Below are positions 3,340 through 56,448 of a stretch of 64,000 bases of DNA, piece after piece. Made by a program: the position numbers and the translations under genes. Positions within the stretch are counted from its first letter, which is position 1. Each line of letters starts with the position of its first letter. This stretch comes from Aplysia californica (taxonomy: Eukaryota): positions 2,032,009 through 2,096,008 of the forward strand of contig NW_004797278.1 in assembly GCF_000002075.1 (NCBI RefSeq). Reading direction: 5' to 3'. Under the pieces are notes generated by a model. The model did not search any database, was not told the origin of the DNA, and saw only the letters and a program-made list of their open reading frames with translations.

Positions 3340-3510
3340 TCACACCGTCTCATCTTGACCTTTCTCCATGACACTTTGAAGCCTTTGCATGCGAGCGTCC
3401 TGCACAGATACAGGATTGCCGGCAAAACTTCTGTGGTACAGCTGAATCAACTGCTGGTATTCATTCAAGGTGAACTGTGGGCCTTTCTCAGCGAGGGAGT
3501 TGAGAACATC
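3340..3510 (-). CDS. EXOC4: EXOC4 exon 28, terminal coding part (...QDETV*)
   Basis: ttcctctag| acceptor; TGA at 3342-3340. Confidence 0.93.
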   Translation of the reverse strand, partial: DVLNSLAEKGPQFTLNEYQQLIQLYHRSFAGNPVSVQDARMQRLQSVMEKGQDETV

Positions 3511-6500
3511 CTAGAGGAAAGAATGAACACAATGGAAATTATGTAGGGGCCTATATATCTTTTTATAAAGACCAACATTAGGAACAGGGCCTACAGCCTC
3601 CATATGTATTTTTCCTATCACATGGGTTATAAACCGTATAATGCTCTTCAGTCTTTTATCTCTCTGTGGCATGAAGTGACAGAACCCTTTACCGTCTCAG
3701 AAAAGATGCTACAGAAGGCTACATTCCCGTTCCCTGTTTACCAGCAGGACTATGTCTGGCAAAAGTGCCAACTTTTAAATACATGACGTATGTAGCAGAG
3801 ATTTGGACATTAACTACTTGTTACTACCCAACAAACATTCTCCCTTCCCTTTTTATTTGCATCAGACAATCAATGAATAATAGACTGATACCGAGAAAAA
3901 AACATTGAACCCCATAATAGACCAGACCCAGCTTACATCAGGGTTCAGATACAGCAGCTCGTAGAAGTGCCTTGCCCTGTCAAGATCCGACTCTCTGGTC
4001 AGGGTTATGTTGGTCAAGTTCTGCTGGATAGCCAAAATATTTCGGCACCTGTGGAGAAACAGAGTAGCTCTTAGCCTCCGAACTAAATGCTAATGTGAAA
4101 TATAAGAAACACAATAACAGGCAAAGTGATGGTAAACTTTTGAAAAAAAGTCTCACTAACCAGTTCTACCAACCAAACCAACGACACTCAAAACTGTCAA
4201 AAAAATAATCACACTAATTTACTGAGAGAAATGGAAGGACATACAGGAGAGAGATCCGACTGGAAGAAAACTTAACTAAAATCCAAGGAAAGTACAGACA
4301 CCCTCAAACTCAAAAGGTTACCACTAGCACCTGAACACAGCACATACCACAAGACTCAAACCAAAACGGGATCAACCCAGACAATCCATCAACACTACAA
4401 AATTGCTGAAAATTATTTCAAAAGCCTCAGCCCACACCACCTCCTTCCACAACTTCCTCCTCCGGCTCCTATACAAAAAAACACCCAGTCCTGCACAAAG
4501 GAACAACTCTACAACTGGGGTCACAAACCTTTTTCAAAGTGGGTTGGATAGCCGAGAGAATGCCGCGCAAGGGCTGGCTGTCTATTTTGTTCCGTGCAAT
4601 ACACTGAACACAATAAAATTAAAGCAACCAGGCTATTATTATCTTATCAATATACAAAATACAAAAATACATGAAAAAAAACTTGTACAACAATCAATGT
4701 ATATATTCATGAAATATTCATGTGCGAGCAACCAATTTTGAAAAGGGAATCCTCATTTGTGGTAGGAAATGTGTTAAAGGAAAGATTTTGTCACACTGAA
4801 GCCGAGCAAGAGTGTGATACATTAGCTTAACATTTTCTGATCTATAAAAGCACATTTCACATGTACTGCAAAGTTCTATGAAATTATTAACCCTATCCGT
4901 ACGCCCTGGGGTCATTTTGTACCCAAGCATTGTATTCTTCACATTTTAGTTTTAGAATACTTTTAGTTCGAAGATCTCTTTGAAACTTTCAGTATTTCTC
5001 AAAAAATCATTTTGACAGACTGCTATGCAAAGCGTACGGATTGGATTAACGAGTAAATTTCCTCTTTGGAAAGTGGTGGCACAGAGTTCCCCACTTCGTA
5101 TGGATACGATAGTAAAACATGACGTACGGATAGGGTTAAATCCTTTTGGTGACTAAGTTATGAGCACTCTATCCAGATTTTTCCCCCTGCATGTTAGCAT
5201 GGCAGTGGGCCAGACGAACTGACCTCACATGCTGGATCTGACACGCAGACTGTAGTTAAGTGATCCCTGCTATACAATATTACTTGGAGCAAAAGTAGAC
5301 AAACCTAGAGGCTTCTAGATATACAACAACAGCAACAAAGACTATAACTCAATGTGTAAGACTTCAGTAGGGTAGGCATGTGTTGCAGCTTAAGGAAGCA
5401 GAAGACATAAATGGACTAAACAGATAAACACTCTTACATTTTCTTGATCCCATTTTCATTGATTTTCTTCAGAAACTGGACACTGGTAATCAAAATTGAT
5501 GCCACCAGGTACCCCAAGCTCTCAAATATATACCTGTAAGATAAAAACATAAATACCACACCTTACCTAAAGGCCTCACAATGTCATATGAGTATTAAAT
5601 AATTAGAACATAACACATAGTTGCAGGTGTAGAAAAAATAGATTTAGAAACAAACTGATATTTAAAGATAATTCTTTTCAAGCGTTTTGAACTTTCATTA
5701 TGAAACTTGGAAACTAGCAGGTGAAAAAGGAAATAATCAATAAACCAACGGTGACACAGACACATACACGGGGGACAGACACACACACGCGCACACACAC
5801 AGACCCACGCACCCCCCCCCCCCCACACACACATGCATGCACAGGCCCACACATGAGGGCATTTACAATGAGACATAAATAACATCTCGCAATTTTTCAG
5901 ACGGATCGAAAGAATCTGCTCAACAACAAAGCAATGTACCAACTAAGACTTCCTGAGATATCAGTATATCAGCTAAGTGTACTGTTAAACTACGGATAGA
6001 GTTGCACTCACTTGAATTTCTTTGGCTGCAAACTTTGCGCCATCATCTCTTCCATGCCACTCAGGTCCTTATTTAGCTTCAAAACATTGGAATCTGGGTC
6101 CAGGTCATCTATGGGACCAGCGTAGTTGGACTGGAAAAACAGCATACACCATGAGATGGGTCAGTAGGCGAGATATTAACATTCTTTAAAATCTTTTCTA
6201 TAAAAATAAAGCAATGGAAAACAATAAAAGACTACGTGAAGCACTTAAAAACTTCAAGAAAAACAAACAAGACTGCTCAGTGTAAGACTGTGCCATAAGC
6301 TATTTTGAAAAGTGAATCACAGAGTTTTACACTGAACATTTGACTTGCATTTTTTTCCAAAAACCTTCATTGCAGTACTCCTGCCTCCATTATTTGAGCA
6401 GCATTCTCAGGTGTCTTATGAAACAAGTTTCAACTTGACTTCTAAGACTCTTTATTTCATTTTTAAAAGTACATGTTTTTACGACCCCACCATCACAATT

Positions 6501-9500
6501 AAGATCACTTGGGAGGTGGGTTAACCATCCTTCCAGTCAGGGCCAACCCGGACTCTATAAAAATTCTCTCCACTTGGAAATCAAACTCGGGTCTCCTGCA
6601 TGTGACAGCAAAGCACGTAACTGCTATACAACAGATACCAGTCCCAAGGTCCCAGACAAGAAATGCAAAACAAAACATAAATGTTTATGGCAAACTGACA
6701 ATCAGTAAGGACGGAAAAGGATGGCATCACGGATATACAAGAACTGAAAATAATGAATTGGAAAGTACTGACCAGCAATGTGAGACATTTAGAAGCTTTA
6801 TATAAGCTTTTCTATGAATGAGACCCTTGACAAAAAAAAGCACTATAACTTTCAAAATCTACTGTGGATTATCACAGCATCCCTTACTTAACAGGTTATT
6901 TGGTTATTATTCACACTTATTTCTAGACCATACCTGCTTCGCCACTGGCAACAAGTAATAGAAGCAGTGTACTCTGACTTCCAAGTGGAGAAGGAGAAGA
7001 CAGATTTCTGCCAAATCCTTAAAGTCTTGCACAAGTGACTTCAGAGACCTGGGAAGAATAAAAAATGACAAAAGTTATAAACATGAAATAAAAATTTTAA
7101 AAATTATGAAAAATTATAATACAATTTTTATTATAAGACGTTCCCTTGAAAATCAAGCTCAAAGCCCTTTACACATAAAAAGTACAATTTTAATATCAAT
7201 AAATGAAAATGGTGAACAAATAAAAATTCAACAATAAAAATTGTTAAAAGGTGACATAATTAAGGTCATGAAAAAAAGCAAAAGAGCCTGAGAAGATATT
7301 ACTTTCAAACAACAGTTAAGATCATATACATTCTTTTAACAGTGATGAAGTGTCAACGATTTCTGATAAGATTATTCAAATACACTTTGACATAAGTAAC
7401 AGTATGGAACTCAAACAACTTTGTTCAAACATATGAATAAAACTTACTCAAGAGTCTTTTCAGAAATAGGGGGCATCTCCTGTAATAAGAAGCAAAAAAC
7501 ATTAATTATATTTAGTAATTATTCAAAGACACAGAATTCAAATCACAATGATATATATCAGTCTTGAAACATAACTTGACCTTAAAATTAAAATTTATTA
7601 TCTTTTTCTGCTCATATTCATCATTCTTTCCTGACAGAGCTTGACAGTGCTGTCAACCTGATTTATGATGATCGAATGGTAACATCATACTTTCGAAACT
7701 TATTTTTTTTTCTTTATATAAAATTCTTATCTCCAAGAATTTCTCTTGCTGTGCAGTGAGTTTGCACAATGAGTATTTACAAGATTATTAACGAAAGTGT
7801 AAGACATGATATGAGAAGTGAAAAATTCATGAACAGAATTGTGGGCCTGGAGTAACCAAATACTTCGGCCTCCATATTTCTAAAGACAAGCCAGTGAAGG
7901 AGTAACAATAGTTGAAAAGGCCTTTTCCTTAACTCTCAAGGACATCAAGAAAAAAGTGCCCAACAAAGAACTTTTTTTTAAGGTTTTGTAAAAGCAAGCA
8001 TGACTCACAGTGGGAAGTTCCTCTTGAACTGGGTTTAGAGTGTCTTGTGGGGTCAGACTGGTGCAGAACTGGTTCAGGCGGTCGCCAAACCATTCCTGTC
8101 AGATGCAAACAGAGTCACAGTTAGTCATAACCTTGTATTTACTTAGTAAGTGATCTGCACATACATCTGACAAAAACAAGAAATTCGAATAGGACAAAAA
8201 GGGAACTCTCTCGACCTCCCATGTTGGATATACACATTTGTACACAAACAAATGTGCAGTTTCTTTTGAAGCCCCGTTCATACATACACGTGTGGTTTTC
8301 ACCAGGGAAGTTGTACAACGGAAGGATGAACTCAAATCTATGACTGTATACAACTCAAGTGTGTTTTACCCTGTGGGGCAGTGCCCCTTGTTGTGCTATT
8401 CATAACATTAGACTAAACAGTTGTGGAACAAGATATAGGTGCCAAGGGCACACATTTACTGCTCCATACATTTTACACATTTCCCACTGAAAACAAAGCC
8501 TGGCTTGGAAACACTCACCAAGCTCTCATGCACATTTGCCACTGTACGCATCTGGGTGACATCTGTGATGATTTCCTGCTGGGGGATCAGTGACTCATCA
8601 CTGGACAGATTGCTGATCAGAATCACAGCCTCCTTAGAGTTGAGAGCCCTGATCTCTTCCTCTGAGCATATAGTGCGATCTAGTTCTTTGCCTTGTCGAG
8701 GCTGGAGACTTCGCCAGCTGGGCAGTGACCTGATTAAAAAGCACAACACAACATTTTACTGAAGCCAGAGAGAAGCAAATAAAAACATTAATGATTATTT
8801 AACATGACTTAAAAGATGCAATCACCCCCCCCTTGCCCCCTAAACAACAAACCCTACAAATGTATTTCAATAAAGTCAAAAGCACTAAGCAACTCAAAAT
8901 ATAAGAAGAAAGCTATTTTAAATTCAAGACAAGGAATGAGACTATGAGCAGCTCAACGGGTAGAAAAGGAATTACCACAAATCAAACATTTTCCCCACAG
9001 CAGCCACTCAAAATGCAGACCTATCTGCAACATGTAACAACAAAAACTTGAAACAAAAACACCCCCCCCAAAAAAAAAAAATAACCAACAACTAGATTCT
9101 TAAGAAATCCTGTTTCTCAAGCTGATGTGGGCATGTAGAAAAGCTAAGTCTCTCATTTAAAAAGAAGTTTTCATTAGTAATAGAAAAAAAGCACAGTACT
9201 AAAAAAACTGTTTTAAAAAAGTATCAACAATTAACCAAACTTTATGCATTGTTTTGGTATATCATACTTCATTACAACCTCTAAAAAGGGGAAAAGTCCT
9301 CATGAACGTTATATATCCGTTTCTTCGCTCGCTTTTTTAATGGTTCGACACGGAGGGAAAACTAGGTGAAATACCAGACCACAGGCAGCCACGAAAAACT
9401 GGGGATACATGATATCAAGATAACCTCTGCTGTTTTCACTCTGGTGAACCCTGACTGCACCCTGCCAGCACTTGTGTGATGTTTGCGACCTGTAAATATA

Positions 9501-12500
9501 TTACCTTTCCATACTGAACTTTTTACCGATAGCTTAGCCTTTAAACGTTTTGTATTGCCTCGTATGGTGGCAACAAGTAAGACTGTTTGCATTGAATCAA
9601 AGGTTATTGGCTATAATCCAGAAACAATCGGGACATTTGTCACAGTCTGGGTGAGGTTCAAGCCTCATCATTGGCAATGTCTCATTTTTACCTAAAAATC
9701 ACAAGAAAATTGAAAGAACAGAAAAAAAAAACCCTACCAAAATGGGGTTAGGGTAAGCGGAGATAGACCAACAGACAGATGGAGAGAGAAAGAAAGACAG
9801 ATAGCGACAGATGAAAAAGCAGCTAAAACATGAAAGACACTGACCTCAGGAACCTGCTGATGTCCTCATCCTTTGCCCACATTGAACTAATAATTCTTTT
9901 CTCATCAGATCCATGCTGGACGATATCTGCAAAGGTGAAAACATAGACCGGTGAGAAAGACTTCATCTTCATCAGATCTTTGTTAAACCAAAAATGTTTT
10001 TAATGCATGTTATTTCACGCTCCCATCAAAACCATTTAGATCATTTAGGAGGCGGCTTCAACCCTGCCTGTCAGGGTCAACCTTGGCTAAAAGGATACAG
10101 TATCCCAGCAGAAAGACAGAGATACTTGATAAAAATTTTCTCCACTGAGGAATTGAACTCGGGTCTCCAGTATGTGACAGTTAAGCACTTAACCGATACA
10201 CCACAGATGACGGCTTGGTCTGTTGTGCCATACGTCTACTATATGTGATTTCATAAGCTTCTTGTTCAAACAGAACACAAAATGACTGGTGTTGCTTTTT
10301 GTTGCTAATGATCCAGTGACCTAAAGCCTTTCTCTCTCTGATCCACTGCCATATATTCTTCAATTGTTGCAAAGTTCCCCAGAGTGTATATACTGTTTCT
10401 AGTCTCGGGAGAAGAAGTACATCTCTGATGTCTTTTGGTGTTGCATAAGGGCTAACACACAAGGGAGCATATTGGAAGAGACTGTAGCTTGGCTCCATGA
10501 GAATAAATCATACAAGAACGTTTTTGTTTATACGTCAATTGGTGCTGAAGATTAGAGGTGTTACAAAGGAGTAACAAACACAAAAAAGAAGGAGAGATCT
10601 GGAAAATAGAGGTTTGATAGGAAAGAAGGACCACACCATACCACAGCTCCCGCTAATCACACATTGATTAAAATTTGGTAATAAACCAGAAATTTAAAAC
10701 TACCTCTGTAAGCAGAATGACACTTGTCCCTGTAGTCCCTCAAAACATTGCATATCATGTTAAGAAACTGGTCGGCGTAGTCAGGCAGATCATGCATCAG
10801 TTCTTGTAGCTCCTGAATGCTGTTGTCCACAGTCACTGTGCTCTGGAAGGATAGGGAGGGACATACATGATGTCAAACCGATAAACTTGAGGGTTTCATA
10901 ACACCTGGCTTATGTTTGTCTGTTGGAGTAAACTGTAGCAAATGGACACAATAATGGTCATTTAGTGCTGGGAAAGTCAGACAGACGGACAGAATCAACA
11001 GAGAAATAAAGCAGGATCTACCAGTGGCACCCTCCAACCACCCACCACCTAGCTAACCAATTTGCTTAAAGAGAAGAAAGAAATGGGGGGGGGGGGGATT
11101 GGGTAACTGATATAGAATTAAGTATTGTATGCCACAGTGGTTCAACAAATAAAACTAGTCACTGAATGGCAATCCAAACAAAATTAAACTTTGAGACTTT
11201 TGTGGTTTTGAGTATACACCAAGTGCCTTCCAACACGTTGAACATACTGTATCTTAAAAGCCTCCTCAAGACAAAGTGTGAAGTCTTCAAAAACTGCCCA
11301 ATTCTATATATAAAGATCATCCTGTTTGCCCAGTTAGAGTGGAGCAAATTGACACAATAACAGTTATTCAATCTGACAAAGGAAAGACAGACAGACCAAA
11401 TCTAGAGGTACAGTATAACAAAAAATATTTTAAAAAGCAGCATCTACCACTGCCGAAGGGTAGAAGACTCCAGACACCAACAGCACAGTGACGTGTTTTA
11501 ACAACAGAGCCAACAAAATGCATCCACACAATAAGAACAGCATTACCTGTAGTAGTGGTCTTGGAACTCCAAGTTCCCGTTTGGTCTTTTCGTCTATGAC
11601 ATTTCTAAGGGCATCAAAACCTGAAAAAGGCATATATACATTGATGAGTATTCACAAGAGTAATATTTTTCTCTTTTTAGTATTAGTAGAGTTTTAGCAA
11701 CCTTTTTAACTATATTTTTCAAAATGTCATATTAATTCTTTTAAAGCAGGGAAAAGGGTAGAGTGGCAAATGAGTTGTTTTCTCATTTATTTTAAAAAGA
11801 CTCTGGAAATGGGAGAATGTAGCAGTGGTTTCTGAGTTTAACATTTTGGACATATTATCCCAGAAGCCCAGTGGGAAACCGGGTATCTAAATCAGTTAAG
11901 ACAAATATTTGGAATCAAATTACAACACACACATCCCAAATGACTACAATACAATGATATTTCTTTTTTCAGAGATGAAGATTCTCCATCAGCACAGAAA
12001 AAGGTTTTGTAAGGAGACATCTTTTATCACTCACTCTGTATACAGTATCTTTTCCATCAAAAGGAATACAACAATATTTCTGCAGTCAACACACTCTTTA
12101 CAATGGCCAATGGATTTCTCTGTCACTTTAAAATGTCAGCCCAAACATATCTTTCCTATCCTTAAAATGATTGGGGATCAAAATGACATCATCAAACGCA
12201 GTGCTAGTCTCGCTACAACTAGAACACTCTTCAAGGAAAGCCTTCTTAGTATACTGTCCCAATGAGAAAAGCTATTCTTAATTTGGGAATATATCACAAT
12301 TTTTCATTAAGCAGTATTTTCATTAACAACAGAGACAATGGTAATAAAGAATAAACAGGAGAACGTATGATCCTGATTTTTTTCTGTTCTAAGAACACAA
12401 TTATTACTCTAATTGTGCAGGTGGAAGTCAATAGCTGCAGACAATTCAAGGCATCTAGACTAGAGAAAAGAACAGTACTTCCTCATGATTTCAAATGTAT

Positions 12501-15500
12501 TAGATTTGAAGTTAGTTTTTGTCTCATCCATACCTATGCATCACCTTCAACATAAAAATATAATTTAGGAATTACAGGCTTTTTTTTTAACTTCAAAGAA
12601 CAGACATTCTTGCTATATATACATGCAAATATGGAAGTGTCTGTGTTCAACATTGAAATAATACAAAAAAAACACTCATAATGTATTTGCACTTACAAAA
12701 ACAATGTAAGAACAGCAAGTACCATCTTATTCAGCTCAAAACATAAACACACTGAAGTCGAACAAGAAAAGAGCACAATCACGATCAGCACAACAAGGAA
12801 AACACCCATACCACTGACAAAACATTCTCACATTAAATATGTAACAACACCGTATTAAAACAAGGCACTGACGTCTGTGGAAGTAAGCTAAGACCATTTG
12901 TTCTAAACTGCAAGAGATACGGCACAGAAGTATGTCTAGCTGTAAGACATAAACGCCAGTACATATTCTAGCTGTGATAAGGATTACTTTGACAGTTTTA
13001 ACAGCAGCAGAGAGTGGTTTTGCTTGAAATCTCTTCTTTACAAACATGTACCTTGGTGAGGAAAATATTCCTTTCCAAAAAATTTAAAGACCTTTGTGTT
13101 ATTACAGCTAGACATTTATTTTTGTATGGAACAGGCTGCTTTACACATCAAAAGCTCATTCTGTTTTGAACTTAAGACGATGGGGCTAGGAACACTTGTT
13201 TCTATGAATAATGGCAGGATTATGCTTTATGTTATCCATTATCTGGCAGTAATTTAATGTCCCCCCCTGTCCCTCACGACATGATCAGTAAACTGCAGAT
13301 GGTAGAAATTCATGCAGCAAGGTTCAATACTAAAGGATAAAGCAAAAAAGAAAACCTGTTTCAACAATCTGAATTCCTAAAATACTTCATTGGGCAGTAG
13401 TTGATGCAAGAATGGAGTCTACAAATATCGTTTTTGATCATTGCGTAATTGCTCATCAGAACAAAAATGTCTTCACAAATGGAAGAAACAAAACAAAAAA
13501 ACTACCAGTAGACAGCTTTTAATTTAACTGAGTTTAGTGGGAGAAACAAGTTGTGAAACATGAATAATAGTTTTTAGAAAGAAGGTCAAAGATAATAAAT
13601 CATCTTGAGTCAGATGGGATTTTTTAAAGCTGTTAAAGCTTTCTTTATATTCACCAAGTAAAGCTTTCAAAGCAAAAATCCCACTTATTGAGGCAACCCT
13701 TGAGCCTGCCTATGAAAGCCCTATAATAAAATTCAACATCCATATGATTATTTAGGGTTAATCATTATTTGAAATTCCTGCACAAAACACCAAAACAAAT
13801 TTTGAAAATTTTTAGTCTACAGAGACACACACACACAAATTTTAATTTCACTTCCACATGTATGAGTAAAGAGAAGCACATTGACAGGCGGCTGACACTG
13901 TGTGCTGGAAAAGATCAAGACAGACAGATAATATAGACAGTAGAGGGAGAGCGAAAAAGTAGGACCTACCAAACCAGCCACTTTCATGAGAAACAAACTG
14001 AAATTATGAAAAAGTGTTAACTTGGTGCTGCTGAGTGGTGTTTCACATTAAATTCCAACACTGAAAGCCACAATCTGCTAAACAGTTGTGTAACCATAAA
14101 CATTCTAAAACTTAATTCAACAAAAGAGTGAAGTGAAAGATCTGACTGTAATCCCACCAAACATAAACACACAATCCAACCCATCTATGATTTAGAACTT
14201 ATTAAAGACTAATAAAACAAAAGACTTTGAGACTGGCTTTTTTACCCACAGGATTCTCCATCCGATAATTCTATAAATTTTAAACACCCGTAGTCTGAGA
14301 GTAGACATGTAAGCCAGAGAGCATGATAACAGGCCACATTTAACCAGTAACAAAGAACAAAGGAAACACTGAAAAAGGTAGGATCAGGCCATCCTGGAGT
14401 GCCCACCAAAAAAGAAGTCTAATGAAGCATATCATTCCTACAGGACAAATAAAAGTTACTGGCATCCTTTTGCCAAATCTAGCATAAATTGAGGGGTCGC
14501 TGAAAAGAGCACTCCCCTCTTCTAACAAGGCACTGCAAACAAATACAACATCAACAAGACAAAGATTTGTTCAAAAAGACTTGCAGACTAAGAAATTTAT
14601 AAAGTAATAAACAAAATATTGTAAGCTGCCAGAGATAATATACACAAAAAGCAGTAGAAAATACAACTTGCAGCAAACAGATTACACCAAGTGGAGGAAA
14701 GTACAAAAGAAGGAACAGATCAGTGGAAACAACAGCAGCCTTGAGCAGACTGTTCTCATATGTCAACATCAAAACATCAAATATTTGTGTGAAATAGGCG
14801 AACAACGTGGCTAACAACGTGGCTAACAACGTGGTACTCATCACTCACACTTGTGCCCATCTTCTTCTTCCTCCACTGAACGTACGTTATTCAACAGAAA
14901 AGATAGAAATTTACGTTGGGAAAGCATGAAAATAACATTTTGAAAGGCGAAGTTTTTGTTTTATTCTAGGATGTCATCCCAGCGAGCAGATTCGACCTTT
15001 CCCATATTAGAATGAATATATCTATGAAAATTATTCCAGTCATGAAATTAACTACAATAGGAAAGCAACCAGTGATGGAGGAAATGTCAGCTGGTAAACA
15101 GTAATCAAGTGCATAAGACATTTTCATGTTAGTAAATACAACCACTTTAATATTACAGTGTACCACAATCCATAGAGGCACGTTGGTTTATTGTATCATT
15201 TCTGATAGGCTAATCATACCCTCCTAAACAATGTTCAAACAGGTTTTACTCATCTTTCATCAAGTGATTTAAAAAGAGAACATTTTAATGTGTAGCATGT
15301 AGATTCCTCACGCATAATTAATGACATAAGGTTAAAATTTATAGTCTTTTATGGACATCTATTTCTTGAACACAGTGATGGCTGGGGTGCTTCAAATACT
15401 GACTTTCAGATTAAAGTGAAAAATGTCCTGTTAATCACTGCCTTTTAGTGCAGACACATGCACAACCCTTGCCTATTCAAGAGAGAAGAACATATGAGAG

Positions 15501-18500
15501 GAAAATATCAGAAGTCTTCATACAGGAGAGGCTCAACAGTAACATTCTTTGACATCAGTATGTTCAACAGGTCATTCTGTGAAGGTAGCAGTTAGTAAAG
15601 CCATTGAATTTCTACTGCTAGTAATGCCAGCAGGGAAGAGCACTTGCATACGGCCCAGAGTACATTAGGAAAGCATGGGGTTCCAGCAGTTCATACATAT
15701 GTCATTGAAGTCCCATCCAAGAGCGAGAAAAAAGGGCGCGCTAGACCCTCAAGACTAAATCTCTCCAAACATACATTTATTACCCCCAAAAAAGTCATTT
15801 AGGGCAGATACTTCCAGCACCTTGTATAGAGTAGTGCAGAACACGAAGCAAAGGATTTGATAGAGGGCATCATATATATTGTAGATATGTACAATAAGCC
15901 ACACTACTTGACTGTAAAATACTATTTTTATTCCATCTCATTTACAGTTAGATTTCAACTTGAATTAATGTTATGTTGGCAGGGCATGCTATTGAACAAT
16001 ATTTAATTCTCACAAGTGTTAGAATGATACAACAGCTAAGATGTTAGCATAGTCTGTTGGAGGTTATTTTACTGTGTATAATCCAGTCGACAAGGTTATC
16101 CCATATATCATCCATCTGGTGGTCATCAACTATCTCAACTTATGTTCTACAGACAGGAATGAGGACCACCTGATGCTCCAAATAAAAACTAAATTAAAAG
16201 TATAAATTTTGCTATCAGCAGCTTCTCCTGAGAAGTTCACACTCAGAGAATGTTAGATAGATGTGCATTTTTCAAAAGCATCTCTCTGTTTATTCATTCT
16301 TAGCATGTTATTCAAACTAAAAGAACAAGTTTAAAAGCAGCATAATAGAACAAAAAGTATCAGAAGAAGAGAATGAAATCATTGGCAGAATAGCACTCCT
16401 TGGAAATTGTTATTGTTGTATATTGTTTGGTTACTGTGTAAGTTCTACATTTTAACCAAAAAGAAAGTTATTATACATTGATTATTCTGGCTGCATCAGA
16501 GAAGAGGTCAAAAGTTTGCTTTTTCTGCCATTTACAAAGGAGTAATTTAAAAAAAATTTTATGCAAATTCTCAAATTATTTCTTATGCTCAAAGGAAAAA
16601 TTACAACCCATAAACACAAGTTTGCGAAAGAGAATTGTTTCAGCCTCAGCAACCTCTTCCCCTACCCCAGTCTAGCTACCAAGGAGAGAAGGATTAGGAT
16701 ACTACACTTTACAAGTTGGACACTATTACATGTTATTTATAAAGTCCTCAAGCCGGTCATTAAATATTACTGCGCAAAGACAAGATAAGAATGGAAACAA
16801 AGTCTGTGCATTCACCTATAGATGAAAGCCTATGTCTAGTGCCTGAACTGATATCTGAAAAAGTAACAGCCAAACAAAAGGTTAAAATTCAGCAATAGTT
16901 TACAGAGTTAATGGGAAGATTCAGCCCAATGCTTCATTGCTCAACAAATGCAAAGCTGAGATGGATTTCCCTGACTGCAGTCATTCTCTGTGAACATACA
17001 AATCCACTTAGGCTTGAGTCTTAGTCACAAGGTACTTTACTGAGCAGTCACCAGTAAGAAGTCACTTGTCTTAAAAGAATTGTTACCATGCAGCTCATTA
17101 TTACAGCCATTCTTAGATAGCGTACTGCATTGGAAAAGTGATGACTTAACAAACAAAAGTCAAAATCAAAAGCCTTAGTATGAGTACTGATTTGCATGTT
17201 CATTCTCTCAGGGTCGAAATGTCACTCATGTCACTTACTAAGAGGTTCTTCATCATCTTTATCTAGTACTGAATAAGTAAAAAAACACATGAAATATAAA
17301 ACACATTACAATTTCCAAAGTCACATAACATATATCAGTTACAAAAAGAAAGAAAGCTTTGTAATGAATTTACTTTCCTTAATTTTGTCCAAGAGCAAGA
17401 TTTATGAATCCTAACCTTAGACAAAAAAAAGTACCGATGTATCACCAAAAAATACAATAGGCCTACAGTGGTCTCAAACAAAGCACACCCTGCTAAAGAA
17501 CCTGGCTCACGTAACAGCCCACTTTTTCCTTGTAATGGATTGTGTCTCTACAATTATCATGAGTAAGAACCCGTTCTAAAAATGTAAATCTGTACCAGGG
17601 CGATAAGTCAGTTAAGAGTAAATAAGCATGGATACCCAGAAATTAACCAATAGGAGTCCTGGGGCCCAATGAAATTCAAAGAACCTAACCTTCCTTAAAA
17701 CCCACTTTTTTTGGTCCTCCTGATGACTGGATACTTAAATGAAGACCATTGTTCATGTTTCTTTACCAATAGAGGCACAAAGTTGGAGGTATACTTTTAT
17801 GATCATTCAGTTTTTTTAATCAAATTCCCTGTCTATCTACTTCATAAAAGCAAAAATTAATTACACGTAAGAATAAACATTTTCAAGGACTTTTGCTTTT
17901 TTATTAAAATCACAAAATTGTCAGAATGGTACAAATCTGACCACATAACTCTCTGAGAGTGAACTCAAAAGATTTTAGGACATGAAATATCATTTTGCAG
18001 CACATTTCGGGGGATTAAGAGGAAAAGATTTCAAAGATGTTCGTCTGATAAGTCTTTGCAAGTCTCCACAACCAAGTGCCTGGCTCCTGTAAGATAATGT
18101 TGTAATAAACCAGGCTTAAAAGAAGTCAATGAGGATTAATATTGTTTAAAACTAGGTTCATCATTTTCTCACAAAGTTGCCTTATACAATTCCTGAAGGT
18201 GTGGTTAGTTTCCAAATCCATGGAGCGGCAAGAACTTGAAACTATCTTAGCAAGAAAACAAGGCAAAATTGGAATCTAGAAGACAATAAGTTTACAAAGA
18301 AAGAACATGAATACATTTATCTTTGTGGACACTGCTTACCTCTGGTAGCAGCATCAATATTTTCAGACACTCTGGCATGGACTTGACCCAGGAAAGCATT
18401 TTGAACGAACTCAGTGATAAATTCTTGCAGTCTGCAATATGCCATTCAAAACAGCAAGATTAATTATGATGTTCCACATACATATGGAATAGCAATTTTA

Positions 18501-21500
18501 ATGCACATACAACACTCCATAGTCTTATATCAAAATAATCAATCTTACTCTAAGTACAGCTGACACAATATGAAAAATGGAAAAGGAAACCAGATAAAAA
18601 TATTGGAGAAAGTTGCATCTTCAATTGGACGCCCCTCTAGTTTAACTGAAGAAAGAAAAAAAAATCCCACGAGCAAGTGAAAAAGACAATATTGTCTGGT
18701 ATAAAATAATTTCTAATATGTGGAAACTCAACAGCACTTAAAACTTACCCGGAGGTGGTTTCCATTATCGCCTCAACTTCTTCAATAAACGATCGAAGGG
18801 GTTTGTAAATAGCTGGGCATGAAATAAAGACAGCACAAATGAAATCATCACTTCAAAAAATGCATTTTACTTGCACAGCATTAACAAAAGACCACATTCT
18901 TAGAATTTGACACAGTTTCAAAACACAAAATCAATATTTTAGTTAGATAACCTCGAGTAAAAAGATAAACACAATGTTATATATTTCATCATACCCTGAT
19001 TTTAGTTTTCATAGTTTTACGGCACTTGTAACACAATAATCTCACATAAGAGCCGAAGAATAGAAGTGTTACAAGAGAGTAACATACACAAAAAAGAAGG
19101 AGGAGAGATAAGAATGATAGAAGTTTGATAGGAAAGAAGGAGCAAACCACACCAGAGCACCCACCAACCACCCACCATAACGTGATGTTCATGAACTGCC
19201 TCATTAAGCGCTCATAATACAGACTATCTAGATACAATTATAAACTTCTGTGAAATAAAGCGGAGTCTAAAGAACATTGTAGAAGAACAAAGTATAAAAT
19301 GAACTAAATGCTGTGCCTCTGTTTCAATATTATTCATATCTTTACAGACGTAAGATAACTCAACTTACCTGTTATGTTAAAAGCTCCTGGCTTGCAAACT
19401 TTTACTATGAGCCAGTTGTCTGACTGACCAAGGGAATCCTGTGAGGGGATATAAGACAACACATCTTGCACAATAGGGTTGGTAATACAACATTTACCAT
19501 GGAAAAAAAAAAGTGAAAAGTCGTCCTGCTGGAGCAGGGTTTATGTCGCCCAATAAGCCTATTTCGGCACCTCGCCTACGTTCTGGTCCCGAGTCAGTTT
19601 AGCCCCTGGCTCAGCGCACGCGCAGCGCGCATCATCTTACGTGTCATTTGGGTCCCGAGTCCGACCCCCATTCACGCAGGTCAAGTGTGTGTGCGTCAGT
19701 CTGCTTGAGTTTGTGTGCGTTTGTGGCCTTCTTCTAGAACCGCCTGCGTTGGTTCGTAATCGAGGCATGCGTCTCATTCAAAACATGCCAAGTTGGTAGC
19801 TCTAGATGTTCGTCCAATGAAATTATAGAACAAATTGACTCATTTAGACATGAGGAGCTCGAAAGGATCGTCAGGAAACAAGACTTCCATTTTTCTATAC
19901 AAAATCTTTCAAATGAGCTTGATTTTGTATGAAATCATACTACCTGATAAAAAATAAGCTTGTTTGATAGTTTTGAAAACCATTGTGCAGGTTCAAAGAA
20001 CAGTTTGAGTGTAAAACATTCGGAAATTGACCTATATTATCCCCTTTTAAACCTCAGGTCATTCATAACAACAAGAGCGTCCAGAAAGGTTATTCGAATG
20101 AGCATAACTACTCTAATGTCTTATCAGCTTGTGACAGGGGGTTATTCATGTGTTTGTAACACTTTATAAATAGAAAGCTATGAAAGATAGAGCGTTATTA
20201 ACACACTCCCGCGGTATTCATGGCGAAAACACACGTTTCCCGGCGCGCAGTACACACTGAGTGACCCCGGCGGCCTGCCCGGCACGTCCAACGTAATTGG
20301 TTGCTGATAAGATTCACATCTCGGCACAGACGCAGGACAAGAGTTAAGTTGTAAATCACAAGATTATGACACCTAACAGAGACCACCCTTCAAAAAGGAA
20401 GGTTTACTTCAGAGATAAAATATGAGCTTTTTATTATTTAGTAGAGGTTTTACGGCGCTCGCAACTGCATAAGGTTATAAGAGCGCCAAGGGGTGGATGT
20501 CAACAGAGAAGTCTTTACAGGGAATCGGGCTTACTCTGCTCACCTCTCTAGCTTCAACCGCACAAAGTCTGTTCCGACTTTCAAGGCACCCCGGAAATAG
20601 CAGTTCACAAAAGAGTGACAAAATACAAAAGAAGTAGAGGAAAAATGACGATAGTCAGGGTTAGGAAAGAAAAAGCAGCAGTTCCCTGTTGTAGTTCAGG
20701 CACAGTTATGAGCATGACATTGATGAATCAACCCATTTACAATTCTACTATGCATAAGAACGAGAAATGTCCCCCCTTTGGGAATGGCCTAAAGACACTT
20801 CAGTCAGTGGCACTGCCCGGGGGGGGGGGGGGGGGGTCATGAGCTTATGAGCTTAAGCATACAGCAAATCAGTAAGGTAACACCCATACTGTGTCAGGAA
20901 CAGACGGTAATTTACACTATAATAGAGAACCTGTCAAGAAACCACAAACCAAGTACACAGACTCAGGGCCCAGAAGTGGGAGCAGACAAGGCACAAGTCA
21001 TCAATACCATACCCAAACAACAACAAACAACAGTTTGAGCAGCATGGCAAGGCAAACCTAAAATTAGAAGCCCACAAAGTAAACTTGAAGTGTGAATAAC
21101 TAGAACAAGTAACCAACATACAACATAATACATGATTATGTTTTATGTACTGATTATTTTGTGAACTGCTGCGGCAGATAATCTAAAAAATTAACACACT
21201 TACATGTTCAAACTGTTGAATCTGTTGTCTTGCACTGCTGACACTTATAGCATGTTGAGATGCATCAAATCTGAACAAAGAGACCTGGAACAGTACAGCA
21301 TGTACAGGTGAAATAATGTATTCCAGGCTTGACCTGAAAATTTCTTGTTTAAAATTTCACAATTCACAAAATCTGTACACAAATACCAAGGCTGAAGTTA
21401 CCCTTATCCTTAAATACCTTTACCCAAATCTTGAAAGCTTCCTTGCAGTATGGACCATAATATCACAAAAACGATATTCTTGAACGTCTGTACTTTTTGT

Positions 21501-24500
21501 TTGCTGAGATAATCAGTGAGTAGTGGATTGAAGTAGGAAGAAAGGGATATGGAAGCTCGCACGCCCATATGTGCATATGAGGGTGTGTGTGTGTGTGTGT
21601 GAGAGTGTGAGTGTCGGGGGTGGGGGGTGGGGGGGGGGGGGGGGAGCAATCGTCCATGGACATCAAAACCGACATGTACCTATGAAAAAGCTTGTGCTCT
21701 CACTATAGCTGACTATGTTGCATTCTCGAGTGAGAAAAAACTATCCCTTTTTGTCATTTTCCTTTATTCTCACAATATACATTGTAAATAGAGTTTGGAT
21801 CATTAAAATCTTGAGAAAAGTGAATGTTACAGAGAAAATGAAATAAATGTTTTACACAGGTACGTTCAAGACGTAGCTTTTTAAAGAGAAAAAATACTAA
21901 ATGGGACTCCAGACTTCGGAAACTCAACCTTACAGCTGAGAATACGTTTTAAGCCGAGAACATTACACAAGGTTTTACTGTACCATGTAGCTAAGTGACA
22001 AGGAAATGAGGCAGGACACTGTTATTACCTTTTTGGGTCTTGCAGGTTTCTTCTTGCTGAAGTACTGGCTGATGTCCATGCTTGGTTCATCAAAACCTGT
22101 GGGCGCCTGCTGTCTAGACGACATCGTGTTCTTCACATCCAAGTACTGACTCAGCAAAATCTGAAGCTAAAGTTGAGCATGGAAAGTTTAATCAAAACAA
22201 TCTGCTTAGAAATGATACTTTAACATCTTGAGGACACGTTGTTGGACTAGGAACAATACAATCTTTAAAGAAAAGTATCTACATAAAATTAGACAGTAAA
22301 ATGTTATCTGTAGAAAATATCATGTTTGAGCTTATGCAACCTGCAACCTTGTATGAGAGACTATCTAACATCGATCCTGCAACATTGATAAACTGCAAGC
22401 TTATACTGTTGAATGACATCAAGGGTGGTCACCTATGCATTGTGCTTAAGACAAAGTATAAATAGCCTCTGAGACAAAAATACACCCATAGCAACCCAAG
22501 AAAGAAAATTTACCTATTCTCTACACTTCTTTCACAACACAGAAATGTCTCAATGACAGAGACATGTTGGACTAAGAGGGCAAAATCAAATTTCACAGAA
22601 TGAGCTCAGAGAGCAAAAAATTGTCAAGAGATCAATAAAACATTAATAGTTCAATTAATCCCCTCAACAACAATATGGACCTGATACAACAGTTGAAAAT
22701 TTCCGGTTGAAGACAGGAACCTAGGCCTAACCCTCTAAACAGAAAATTGAAGCAAAACTAAACCAGTTAATCAGTAGCATTCAGATACTAGTTACAAATA
22801 CATAGGCCTACAGAATGATGAAAGGACAAAAAATACATTTTTAAAATTGATGTTTACAGAACTAAACAAAATAATTGTCATGAGACTCTTCATTTCTTTG
22901 AAAGTTACAAAAAAGAAACAGAGAAAACAACAGAAACCATGAAGCTTACCCTTGCTTGTATTTCTGACCAGACATCTTTCATATCATACAGGACATTCCC
23001 ATGCAAGGGCATACCAGAACTCTGAAAAGAAACAATGACTCTGAACCAAGCTCAGTTTATCTTTTCCTGAAGAACAATGTCCATCTTAACTAATTTTAAA
23101 AGAAAAAAAAATCAACAACAAAAGACAGTCTTAAAATGAAAAATATATATTCTGATCAGTCCTATTTATAAACGAAACAGTTATTTCAGTCTGACATTTT
23201 AATTATTTCGCTGAAAAACCTGAGCAATTCAAGACTTAAAAGTAATAAAAAGTTATAAAGTCTATAAAATCATTCACATAATGAAACATACATCTATCTA
23301 TTAAACTATGTCCTGGTGCTAATCAAGTTCTTCTGAAAAAGAAACAATAAACATGTTTATCTTCAAATATCAACTTTAATCTTCAAACATAAAACTTCTG
23401 ATTCTAAAAAATAACATGTATAAATCATTGTTCTCTGTTCTCAAGCAGTCTTCAACCATAATACAATATCAATCAGTCTTTAATTTTCCAGCGATTACCA
23501 TACTGCCTTGATAAGGACTCCCTCTAACTACAGAGGCAATAAAGCCAAAAAAGAAACTCTTCACATAGCACAGTAGTTAACAATGTTATAATCCAATAAA
23601 TATGACCAAGATATTCAGAGTTCTCTTTATGAATTATTGTAGAAGTGCAAAACATTTCTGAATTTGAATTTATGAATGTATAAACTTCCCTGATTTCTTT
23701 ATGGGACAGTGGCATGACACACTTGAAGTGCTAGCAAAGCCAGCTTTTTTCTTCTTTTTTTTTAAACAACATGTTCAAATAAAACCTCCCAGTGCTCAAA
23801 CTGTTAAAGAATCATAATGCTATTAACTGGAAATTTTCCTCATCTACATAAGTATCAACATCAAACAGCTTGTCAAAGTCAAAAGCTCAGTCAAGACATA
23901 GTTCAATGTTGAAACTATCTGAAAGATGCTCATTGCCAACAGTATGTTTATGATGAATGAGGTCACTGCATGCATGTCACACGTTTCATCTTAGATAGTA
24001 TGCACACCCTTCAGAGTACATAATGACGATAATGGCTGACAAAATCATGCCGAATTAGAAGCTGGCATCTCTGGAAAATTTTTATCACAGCTAATATATA
24101 ACAGTTCAACTATAACCAGACACATCATAACCACACAAAATGTAGTGGGTTGTAAGTCAAATTCATTGCCACGAGGCACAATTTTACACACAGATGAACA
24201 TGAGCCAAAAAATGCTTTGTTATTTCTTCATTCATTATAATTCTTCCTCTCCACCCAATTGACTTTCTACACTAAATGCAATTCTTATAATGGCCTTTTC
24301 TCAAATTTTCATTAAACCTTTAAAAAAAATTAAAGTGATGGTCAAGTGTACACTTTAATAATCTTGACTGCAAAGAAACAACTCAGAAAACAACGCCTCA
24401 TTATTTTCTAAATAGAGCTGCCTTGAATACAATTTAAGATGATTAAAAAGCCTTGCAGATACAGGCCACAGAAAAGCATACTACATTAAAATCAATTTCG

Positions 24501-27500
24501 ACAAGGTTAATGTTAACATGCTGGTTTGCAGTTTTTGTAACAGCTATAAAACGCATAACTGAAAAATTAGAAGTACAGGAAAAGTCTTTCAACACAAAAG
24601 TAAATGATGGGAGCCAAACAGAAGGAAGCCACAAAAAAAAATAAATACAGTGCTACAAGAAAATAAACCAAACATTTCCATGGGGTCAGTTCTTCAACTT
24701 CATAACTGCTGCCAAGAACAACTGGGGCAAATGAAGAATAACAAAAACCAAAAAAATTTGAAACTTTGTAACTTTGAAAATGGGTAGAGGAAAGGACAAA
24801 GATAGGATACAAAAACTCTGTGCACAATATTTCAAAACAACCCAGGAAAAATGAGGATAAATAAATATTTTATTCTAAAGATAATAAGGTTTGAAGGCTT
24901 CACACACAGACAGCACACACAAAGCAATGCTACCAAAGAATCTCATGCCTCATTCTGAAATTTTGAGCAGATTTTGTGCAGTAAAATTTTTACTGAGGTA
25001 AGATTAACAGCAGTTTAGCCATAAATAAAATCAAGTTTGCTCAAAATGAAATGCAAGGTAAATAAAAGACATAAAAGCCAACAGATTTAAATTTTGAACT
25101 TCATTTTACAGAGTAAGCCAATGCCATTTGTTGTACAACATTCATCTTGTGTTACCTCCTTTTCCACACCAGAAGACCGCTTAAACACAAAACAGAGATA
25201 CCATTGCTGTATCAACATATTTACACATGTTTTTAAATAATAAGACCAATGGTGTTTCTGATATGTTCAAGGCATCACTGTCAGCAAAAAAGTTACAGCT
25301 TTTATTGAATTCAACATCAGAACAAGCTTAATAACTCCAAACACGGGCCCAATTTCTTATCACATCCTCCTTACTGTTCTCTCTTTTAACACTAAAATTA
25401 GCCAGATTTTTTATGCCAAGATTCACCTGTCATTCAAAGAACAGAAAAATACCCAAACACCATTCAAGTATAAGTCTAGATCCTAACACAAAGAGCAGGT
25501 TCAAATGATCTTCCAATACTTTAAATTAGAAACAATATATCTGCAAGACCAAACACCAACCAAACTACAGCAACCAACCCAAAGTTGGAGAAATAATAAT
25601 TAAATCGGGAGCTTAGCAGAATGAAGCTTGATTACCAGCTAGTAGCATTATTCTACAACAGATGAGACTCAATAAAAGAGAGCACAGGTTACGCAAATGA
25701 ACTAAAGAAACAAAATATGTGAGTCACTGAATACTTTTCATAGGCACAAGTTTATTAGTATAGCAAGAAAAGACAGTTGCCTCAACAAGCTACTATTCTT
25801 TTTATTTATTACGCCCTATGCACAGATGATAAATTCTCGAACAAATAAAATCCCATGACCTACTTCCCCACCCTATTTCAACCTCTTTCCAAACCATAAA
25901 GCACTAAGCAGAAGCTAATGCACCTTCTGTGTAGCCAAACCTTGCAGACTACTCAGTTGCTGATGTTTACCACAAGCTAGTATATATGTAGATACCACAA
26001 CTTAATATAAAAATGACTTCTATATAAATCAGAGACGCTGGTGATGATACATTCTGAGGTAAAAAGTACACGTATATGGGATACACACAAATAATATTGA
26101 TACGCTTTTGACATCTCTTGTGAAGCCAATTTTATGACTGCAACGGAGTTTTGCAAGTTACACACTACAGAGAAATGATCATTAGACACACCGTGAGGCT
26201 ATCACTTCTCAGAGAGTCAGCTTACCGTCAGCCTGAAAACATTGTCCAGGAAGGTCTGATGGGTCTCAGCCACACAACGAGTTTGTTGGAAGACAATCTT
26301 GAGAAGTTCGTTCAGATACTTTGGTTGAACATGGTTCACCATTGAATCCAGTTGTTGACCTGAACTGCTCGTGAGAAAGAACAAAAAAATCAATTTTCTT
26401 CATGTACTTCACTATCAAATACAAGTGGCTCACACTGATGATGAAACCTGTGTGACACATCGGGCATTAATATACGCTAAATGAATGGCACAAGTCAAGT
26501 GTACCTCAAGAAACATATTTGATCTAAGCTAATTATTCATTGATAGTCAAACAGGAACTGTATGACTTTCCAAACAACACTGAATAAGAGATCTAACCAA
26601 TCAAACCAGAGCAGAATAAACAATGCCATCCACTGAGTTTCCAAAACAGACAACTTACTTTCACACAAAGAGACAATACTAAGGAGTAAAAATAGCAGAT
26701 AATTTTCTCTCACAAAAACGAGTTTACTATGGTGATAAGGTAACTGCACAAACAGCACTATTTTGCTTGAATTAACACTCACCTCAAATTTCAAACATGA
26801 ACAGACTATTGCAGGAAGCAAAGATAGTAATACAAATACAATTGTCTCCGCTAAGACCCTGGTGCTCGGAAAAATGGAAAATACGGGATCTTAGGCAAAC
26901 GGGATTTTAGCCGATGCACAAAGAGAAGAAACTACGGTGACCCATGTTAAGGCACACAACCTGAACAACCGGTAAAATGGTCTCCCTTCACTCTAAAATG
27001 AACTGACATGACCCCTGGGTGGAATTCGAGCAAAGAGTGGTCAACCTTGATGACCAATCACAGGGGCATGAGGCATGCCATTTTCACTTATTATCCTATT
27101 GTGATTCTCCAAGATCTACGCTTATCCAGTTGCCCCTCCCCTTCACCTGTCCAAAATTTATAGCTTTTCATCTCTGACCGAGTCCCCCCCCTCCCCCCCC
27201 CTTGCGCCTTTGTTGTTATGCACCATTACGTTGTGACCACACCAATTAAAATTCAGTATGTCTCCAAAATTCGGAAGTACAGACAGCTGCTGCAATGGTC
27301 AGAGAAGAGTTCACAGTTCAATGCGATCCCGCCTGGAGCGAAGTGGTGTAAGTTTAGGTGGAAAGCTCAGATGAGAGTGCGATGTTTGAGGAAAACAAAA
27401 GCGTTGGTCGGTTCACACCTCATTGTGATCCCTTCGGGGTAAACATTGTACTGTTTCATCGAGTTTTACAAAGCTTAATTGATCATATTCATGAGAGTGG

Positions 27501-56350: not shown

Positions 56351-56448
56351 TCTTTCTTTTTACTAAAAAAGTTTATTTCTATTTTCCAGCCGCAAGGGTT
56401 TACGGCAAGACTTGTAATTTGCTCTATCCTCAAGAATCCGGTCCAAAC
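56351..56448 (-). other. 5'UTR part of the NEK-like coding exon; acceptor AG at 56450-56449
   Basis: tctatttcacag|GTTTGG 98 nt upstream of the ATG; candidate upstream donor CG|gtaagt at 58138/58137. Confidence 0.6.

Follow-up and report, generated by a model that had tools for sequence, protein, structure and literature searches.

Short alternative exons at a single residue of the exocyst subunit Sec8 in Aplysia californica and other molluscs

Does the longest intron of the gene for the exocyst subunit Sec8 (EXOC4) in Aplysia californica contain a cluster of very short alternative exons, and what might such exons do? The question was raised by an earlier reading, from sequence alone, of a 64,000-nt stretch of contig NW_004797278.1 (assembly GCF_000002075.1, positions 2,032,009 to 2,096,008; hereafter the window), which proposed an array of four cassettes inserting short peptides at one position of the protein. 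Three of the four segments are present in isoform models of the gene, and one of these, an acidic 27-nt exon, has homologous inserts in gastropods, bivalves, cephalopods and a chiton. The array as proposed therefore stands for three of its members, and falls for the fourth.

The window carries EXOC4 on its minus strand. A. californica EXOC4 was matched at 100% by a 70-aa exon of the window, and a single 29-exon chain running from 37895 to 3343 reproduced RefSeq XP_012937759.1 (isoform X5, 952 aa) exactly. This chain (3343..37895) is the coding sequence of the form that skips the microexons, and contains the Pfam domains Sec8_N and Sec8_C. The constitutive exon upstream of the site (18340..18431) ends in DAATR and the first base of the codon for Gly541, while the constitutive downstream exon (11547..11620) begins with the two bases that finish the junction codon (Gly, Ser or Cys) and continues with FDALRN. 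Between them lies a phase-1 intron of 6719 nt (11621..18339, minus strand), which splits the Gly541 codon of DAATR-G-FDALRN and is the longest of the 28 EXOC4 introns. Its earlier label, intron 17, holds only if a 24-nt alternative exon further upstream (25179-25156) is left uncounted. It had also been described as free of recognisable transposons. It does contain a dispersed repeat of about 113 bp (13859-13971), with at least 42 other matching places at 73–83% identity, but the repeat lies away from the microexons and the rest of the intron is single-copy. Window positions 11000-27000, and with them the host intron, gave no match to any Rfam family. A 12-nt tandem repeat (3.2 copies, 14797-14834) begins 15 nt downstream of the donor of the 27-nt exon.

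The four candidate segments, of 30 nt (17239..17268), 39 nt (16816..16854), 27 nt (14849..14875) and 21 nt (14250..14270), were found on the minus strand as described, each bounded by AG and GT and free of stops in phase 1. Counting all AG..GT segments of 6–51 nt in the host intron that are stop-free and a multiple of three in length, we observed 204; 200 block shuffles averaged 210 and the antisense strand had 240, so that the implied excess over chance disappears. When the segments were scored with splice-site matrices derived only from the 27 sites that the gene uses constitutively, the 30-nt segment ranked 1st of the 204, the 39-nt segment 2nd, the 27-nt segment 11th and the 21-nt segment 27th. 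Segments scoring no lower than the weakest real exon numbered 11, where 8 were expected. Splice scores and frame rules alone, which do not set the real exons apart from chance, were thus rejected as proof of an exon, and we accepted three exons because independent isoform models carry them.

These models are five RefSeq predictions for EXOC4, which we take to rest on transcript alignments. The 39-nt exon is present in isoforms X1 (XP_012937742.1) and X4 (XP_012937756.1), the 30-nt exon, which replaces Gly541, in X2 (XP_012937748.1), and the 27-nt exon in X3 (XP_012937750.1), whereas X5 has none; all matches are letter for letter. Skipped and included states are therefore both present among X1–X5, as they are among Logan proteins of other molluscs. 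The 39-nt exon is basic and contains the pattern R-x-R-x-x-S, which we noticed after the fact and assume to be a basophilic kinase consensus. With inclusion in four of the five models, the proposal that the 30-, 39- and 27-nt segments are genuine cassettes is borne out, and we hold with high confidence that they are three real alternative exons. To this extent they are already known, as unlabelled RefSeq predictions for which the open-access literature searched yielded neither a description nor tissue data nor a comparison between species. Arrays of microexons in tandem are themselves a familiar arrangement.

The 21-nt segment fared differently. It is in none of the five isoforms, its AG-exclusion zone is 22 nt long, and it creates a stop when joined behind the 27-nt exon. 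We conclude that it is likely a chance AG..GT stretch. A 45-nt version of the same segment, using an acceptor at 14294, scored better (rank 6, with a 72-nt zone), yet it too is in no isoform and was discarded.

Are the exons shared with other animals? All proteins covering the site, named or grouped, were scored, within the best 120 of 777 matches and with at most 15 members per cluster. The Logan proteins in this set are regarded as inferred from spliced RNA, because they are full-length open reading frames on contigs of 3–5 kb. Of the taxon rows, 11 of 18 in gastropods and 11 of 19 in bivalves had an acidic insert, with VDEEDES, VDEEDGS, VDEEEQC and VDEEEES as the bivalve variants. In the cluster of Logan proteins containing Sepia, VDEEEGS was found in three of eight proteins (on 10 of 111 contigs), and the chiton Liolophura has EADEEGS followed by a further piece. 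Every gastropod and every named bivalve taxon with three or more proteins, eight of eight and seven of seven, had both the skipped and the acidic form. The junction residues (G, or V..C/S) are consistent with one phase-1 intron in all species. In the Logan proteins the inserts appear to be the minority form, as tissue restriction would give, while in the Dreissena models inclusion is the majority (8/10). One apparent Mytilus insert, AYRG, was dropped because it arose from misalignment of a partial protein, and a metagenome scan found no orthologous introns.

Judged from these proteins, the acidic exon is pan-molluscan and its site is an insertion hotspot of lophotrochozoans, a point that the sequence-only reading had missed. 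The mollusc classes have been apart for more than 500 million years, and we consider it very probable that the acidic exon is ancestral to molluscs. The recurrence also bears on the possibility that all inserts are artefacts of gene prediction. RefSeq XP models are indeed predictions, and three shallow RNA runs contained no junction reads, but genomes of four classes, annotated independently of one another, have the same peptide at this residue, and so do Logan assemblies, which makes this explanation highly improbable.

The acidic exon is not alone at this residue. Oysters have a second insert there, DLIRYYKNPQ; 6 of 15 Magallana proteins and 2 of 9 Ostrea proteins contain it together with the acidic exon, and so do 2 of 6 oyster-like Logan proteins. 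Venerid clams have an unrelated insert of 24 aa, Pomacea and Babylonia share a VVPT/AVPT insert that is co-included, and further unrelated inserts occur in Physella, Biomphalaria, Mytilus and Haliotis. Outside molluscs, an unrelated insert was found in one of two isoforms of the nemertean Lineus and in the single protein of the brachiopod Lingula. Some of these lineage inserts may be alternative acceptors rather than separate exons. The 30- and 39-nt exons of Aplysia belong to this variable class: among the species sampled they were seen only in Aplysia, and their peptides had no match in 23 proteins from eight other heterobranch taxa.

Perhaps, then, only the acidic exon is functional, and the 30- and 39-nt exons and most lineage inserts reflect either alternative acceptors or exonisation that is low-level and near-neutral, at an insert-tolerant place in Sec8. 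The inserts are unrelated between lineages, the Mytilus (GLQIIISG), Babylonia (PVLCAG) and Haliotis (GLIVLPTFSLHS) inserts, which are available as peptides only, have the look of translated acceptors, and about eight chance segments in the intron reach the score of the weakest real exon. Against this, the 30- and 39-nt exons are the top two of 204 segments and have long AG-exclusion zones, and some of the extra inserts are conserved, since four oyster genera have the 10-aa insert, two venerid genera the 24-aa one and two caenogastropods AVPT/VVPT. The absence of any insert from the 84 deuterostome and 8 coral proteins also speaks against near-neutral exonisation. We regard near-neutrality of the extras as a minority possibility, and one that can hold together with the explanation we favour for the acidic exon.

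That absence deserves detail. Among the matches listed, no insert occurred at the site in 84 deuterostome proteins (51 vertebrate, 24 amphioxus, 7 echinoderm and 2 hemichordate), nor in 8 coral proteins, nor in the one protein each of Owenia and Tubulanus. As a core subunit of the exocyst Sec8 is single and near-universal, and the length of this site is fixed in every deuterostome and coral protein sampled. The earlier statement that vertebrate Sec8 has no such insert agrees with 0 of 51 vertebrate proteins, a sample that is mostly fish, with human and mouse not among them. Arthropods are represented only by rows of the distant-relative alignment, since of the two named rows one was unalignable and the other a residue short. 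Open-access literature, at the level of titles and the starts of abstracts, yielded no paper on EXOC4 microexons or on molluscan neural microexons, though subscription papers, supplements and VastDB could differ. Likewise, we did not find this conserved, repeatedly colonised Sec8 site described in the open-access literature, and subscription papers or supplements could list it.

Can the exons be used together? Spacers of 384 and 1940 nt separate the three Aplysia exons, and the frame stays open whichever of them are combined, so there is no steric or frame block to co-inclusion. None of the four Aplysia inclusion models has two exons, and Biomphalaria, Physella, Mytilus and Mercenaria likewise have single-insert models only, as would be expected if tandem duplication of an exon had given rise to a cluster whose members strictly exclude one another. 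Dscam is the example of such a cluster. Physella moreover has a look-alike of the same length, VQRDGDSHLC, beside its acidic insert, and the 30- and 27-nt exons of Aplysia share some sequence (p = 0.02, the best of 10 pairs). This similarity is lost on correction and the flanks of the two exons do not align, which leaves a duplication origin of this pair unsupported. Inserts are also co-included in Magallana (6/15), Ostrea (2/9), Pomacea (2/7) and Babylonia (4/8), which together with the permissive spacers and frames makes strict exclusivity by duplication improbable.

Where in the protein do the peptides enter? The insertion point had been described as a loop of Sec8. In a structure model of the skipped form (mean predicted local distance difference test score, pLDDT, 78.9), Gly541 instead lies in a two-residue turn within an ordered region (pLDDT 86–89), between helices 510–539 (30 residues) and 542–545, and the distant-relative alignment shows no length change here outside Lophotrochozoa. 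When the 27-nt acidic insert was modelled, the flanking helices were kept and the insert looped out at a pLDDT of about 58. The crystal chain of rat Sec8's C-terminal half (8AY2; PMC10577314) begins at the residue equivalent to Gly541, with a fold match of template modelling score 0.92. We infer that the predicted site is a hinge or domain boundary, for which the construct start of 8AY2 is only indirect support.

An acidic run placed directly before F-D-[A/S]-L-R, as it is in all mollusc classes seen, also recalls an FFAT-like motif. Read together with the following C/S-F-D-A, the acidic exon would then be a docking sequence for the endoplasmic reticulum (ER) protein VAP, tying the exocyst to ER contact sites, and the predicted exposure of the insert as a loop would suit this. 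The FFAT consensus for VAP, however, needs an aromatic residue at position 2, where the Sec8 sequences have Cys or Ser, and FDAL stays helical and confidently modelled. We consider this role very unlikely.

What would control inclusion? Neural microexon regulation had been suggested. In fly and mammals, eMIC targets are characterised by a long AG-exclusion zone, a UGC close to the acceptor and a weak acceptor (PMC8797185). The zones of the three Aplysia exons, all on the minus strand, are 86 nt for the 30-nt exon (17271..17356, no TGC within 60 nt), 75 nt for the 39-nt exon (16857..16931, nearest TGC at −40) and 88 nt for the 27-nt exon (14878..14965, nearest TGC at −51), compared to a constitutive median of 36 nt (range 15–94, n = 27). 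Only seven acceptors in the intron open a frame-keeping segment behind a zone of at least 70 nt, and three of these belong to the real exons. The acceptor of the 27-nt exon is weak (4th percentile of the gene's own, on matrices from 27 sites only). A strong CURAY branch point is a further mark of such targets; CTRAY matches lie at −70 and −135 upstream of the first and third exons in this order, with none for the second.

The genome also encodes an eMIC-type regulator, as a neural programme would demand. A locus at C323:552391-603240 (minus strand) contains a cwf21 exon above its profile cut-off and, 46–50 kb downstream on the same strand, SRRM_C pieces on two exons after RS-rich sequence, one covering positions 1–55 and the other 56–67. 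A profile search for SRRM_C at E ≤ 0.001 gave no match, and the pieces matched only at a loose threshold. We read the cwf21 exon with the split SRRM_C as a putative eMIC-coding Srrm234 locus.

The Rbfox part of the suggestion found no support. A TGCATG, which we take to be an Rbfox-type hexamer, does lie 147 nt downstream of the 30-nt exon (17087..17092, minus strand), close to the 150 nt first given. The hexamer is at background, however: 31.7 kb of introns contain it 13 times in sense and 12 times in antisense orientation, and it accompanies one exon only. In a DNA run, a second allele alters TGCATG by one base (17085-17092), and an adjacent 15-nt insertion re-creates a copy. The same run lists 30 base differences, none of them in the microexons, but about 0.4 would be expected there, so this is uninformative.

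The likeness to the bilaterian eMIC/SRRM3-4 (Srrm234) programme thus consists of very short cassettes in multiples of three, long AG-exclusion zones and an eMIC-coding locus in the Aplysia genome, and the difference in the lack of a proximal UGC and in the long host intron. The exocyst is a known class of eMIC target, because table S2 of PMC8797185 lists two exons of mouse Exoc1, one of 45 nt ("eMICsens") and one of 21 nt ("Neural"). The same table has no Exoc4 row in its mouse sheet, and fly Sec8 appears in it only as a constitutive exon. By the strict length limit of 3–27 nt, the 27-nt exon is a microexon; the 30- and 39-nt exons are above the limit, yet in keeping with fly eMIC exons (median 31 nt), which lie in short introns (PMC8797185).

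From these observations we give neural, eMIC-driven inclusion somewhat better than even chances, and several results weigh against it and against the wider explanation of which it is part. All three acceptors are without a TGC in the nearest 39 nt, so the proximal UGC is missing; at the 63rd and 70th percentiles, those of the 30- and 39-nt exons range from average to strong, unlike those of typical eMIC targets; and the host intron is long compared to those of fly eMIC exons. Taken singly, the two SRRM_C pieces score 20.6 and 18.9 bits, short of the Pfam cut-off of 27. The analysis covered four of 24 listed runs, one of which proved to be DNA; the three of raw RNA yielded 1, 3 and 5 reads over 11400-18900, a very shallow coverage without any joint, skipped or included, and no tissue label was found for any record. 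One of these RNA runs has about 27 letters of depth over the bin of the 27-nt exon, one read's worth and below threshold, which is no more than suggestive. The acidic insert is missing from 7 of 18 gastropod rows (with one or two proteins each), from all four Octopus proteins and from the one Argonauta protein, and selection on the 30- and 39-nt peptides is unsupported because they have no match in other heterobranchs.

Other candidate splicing factors include ELAV, Nova, CELF and ESRP. The exons could be regulated by such factors, or in other secretory or muscle tissues, rather than by the neural eMIC programme. The missing UGC, the strong acceptors of two of the three exons, the lengths of 30 and 39 nt and the majority inclusion in some bivalve models (Dreissena) would all suit this. 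On the other side stand the long zones on all three exons, the weak acceptor on the conserved one, the presence of the regulator, and the fact that UGC is not strictly required: it lies between branch point and AG in 74–79% of human SRRM3/4 targets, so that about a quarter are without it (10.1101/2024.09.17.613571). We give this alternative about one chance in a handful or slightly better.

The explanation we favour, and think reasonably probable, is neuronal, eMIC-driven switching of optional exons at the predicted Gly541 hinge. By default all three exons would be skipped, giving a ubiquitous Sec8. In neurons an eMIC isoform would promote cassette inclusion and the hinge glycine would be replaced by a charged loop, so that the neuronal exocyst gains a charged surface loop. 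The acidic exon would be the ancestral, selected cassette, with a length of 18 nt in bivalves and cephalopods, and probably also in the chiton, that grew to 24–30 nt in gastropods, and the 30-nt (acidic) and 39-nt (basic) exons would be later lineage additions at an insert-tolerant site. The acidic loop might change a contact or bend between the two halves of Sec8, and the basic 39-nt loop might add a kinase site. That inclusion has a measurable effect on exocyst contacts or conformation we put a little short of even. More speculative still, and rather unlikely as it stands, is a lophotrochozoan splicing code on the core exocyst, in which the Sec8 hinge serves as a plug-in port where neurons, or secretory cells of another kind, add either an ancient acidic loop or acidic, basic or kinase-site loops that arose within their lineage. 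If so, cell types would build exocysts that differ in conformation, partners or phospho-control, and the 27-, 30- and 39-nt exons of Aplysia would mark different neuron classes or plasticity states.

How does this arrangement compare with known systems? Agrin z (8 + 11 aa), PTPRD meA and the NCAM MSD are tandem microexon sites, which are extracellular and change ligand binding. They resemble the Sec8 site in having several tiny exons in one intron and peptides at one position, but Sec8 is a cytoplasmic tethering subunit, and its extras vary by lineage round one conserved core exon. Regulated short exons have also arisen repeatedly in orthologous genes, at different positions of the same gene, whereas here about a dozen unrelated peptides enter at the same Sec8 residue, in one intron by junction phase. 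Exon 7 of EXOC7/Exo70 is likewise an alternative exon in an exocyst subunit, studied for its effect on secretion (10.1101/459263), but it is in another subunit, of ordinary size (69 nt in the mouse table) and vertebrate.

A cassette kept across four mollusc classes, with repeated new exons beside it, amounts to a natural insertion port that could be used for structural work on the exocyst, and Aplysia offers single identified neurons in which the Sec8 exons could be studied. Only four eMIC exons lie at equivalent positions in fly and mouse (PMC8797185). Because this overlap is small and molluscan studies were not found, the acidic Sec8 exon would be a ready marker for the eMIC programme in a third lineage.

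Four further features of the window were noted. The C-terminus of Aplysia EXOC4 is DETV (3343-3354, minus strand), a PDZ-binding type of end. Rat Sec8 ends in ITTV and binds SAP102 (PMC10577314), and the likeness suggests that a synaptic scaffold link may be kept in Aplysia. The 24-nt exon that disturbs the intron count (25156-25179, minus strand; RSSGVEKE) is a second alternative microexon site of EXOC4, absent from isoform X4. In the model this site closes helix 328–362, in a low-confidence loop. Alternative use of this position extends to other animals, with 10 aa in cephalopods, 9 aa in scallops, 5 aa in Dreissena, 6 aa in the hemichordate Glandiceps and 17 aa in amphioxus, and because it is alternative in the last two as well as in molluscs, it may be older than the protostome–deuterostome split. 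Outside EXOC4, an intron-free open frame of 1456 codons (51989-56359, minus strand) encodes a kinase and an RCC1-like domain; it is presumably NEK8/9-like, unusual among the many-intron genes of this genome, and possibly a retrocopy. Finally, a 120-aa open frame in EXOC4 intron 4 (33255-33617, minus strand) has, by eye, the look of a retroelement fragment.

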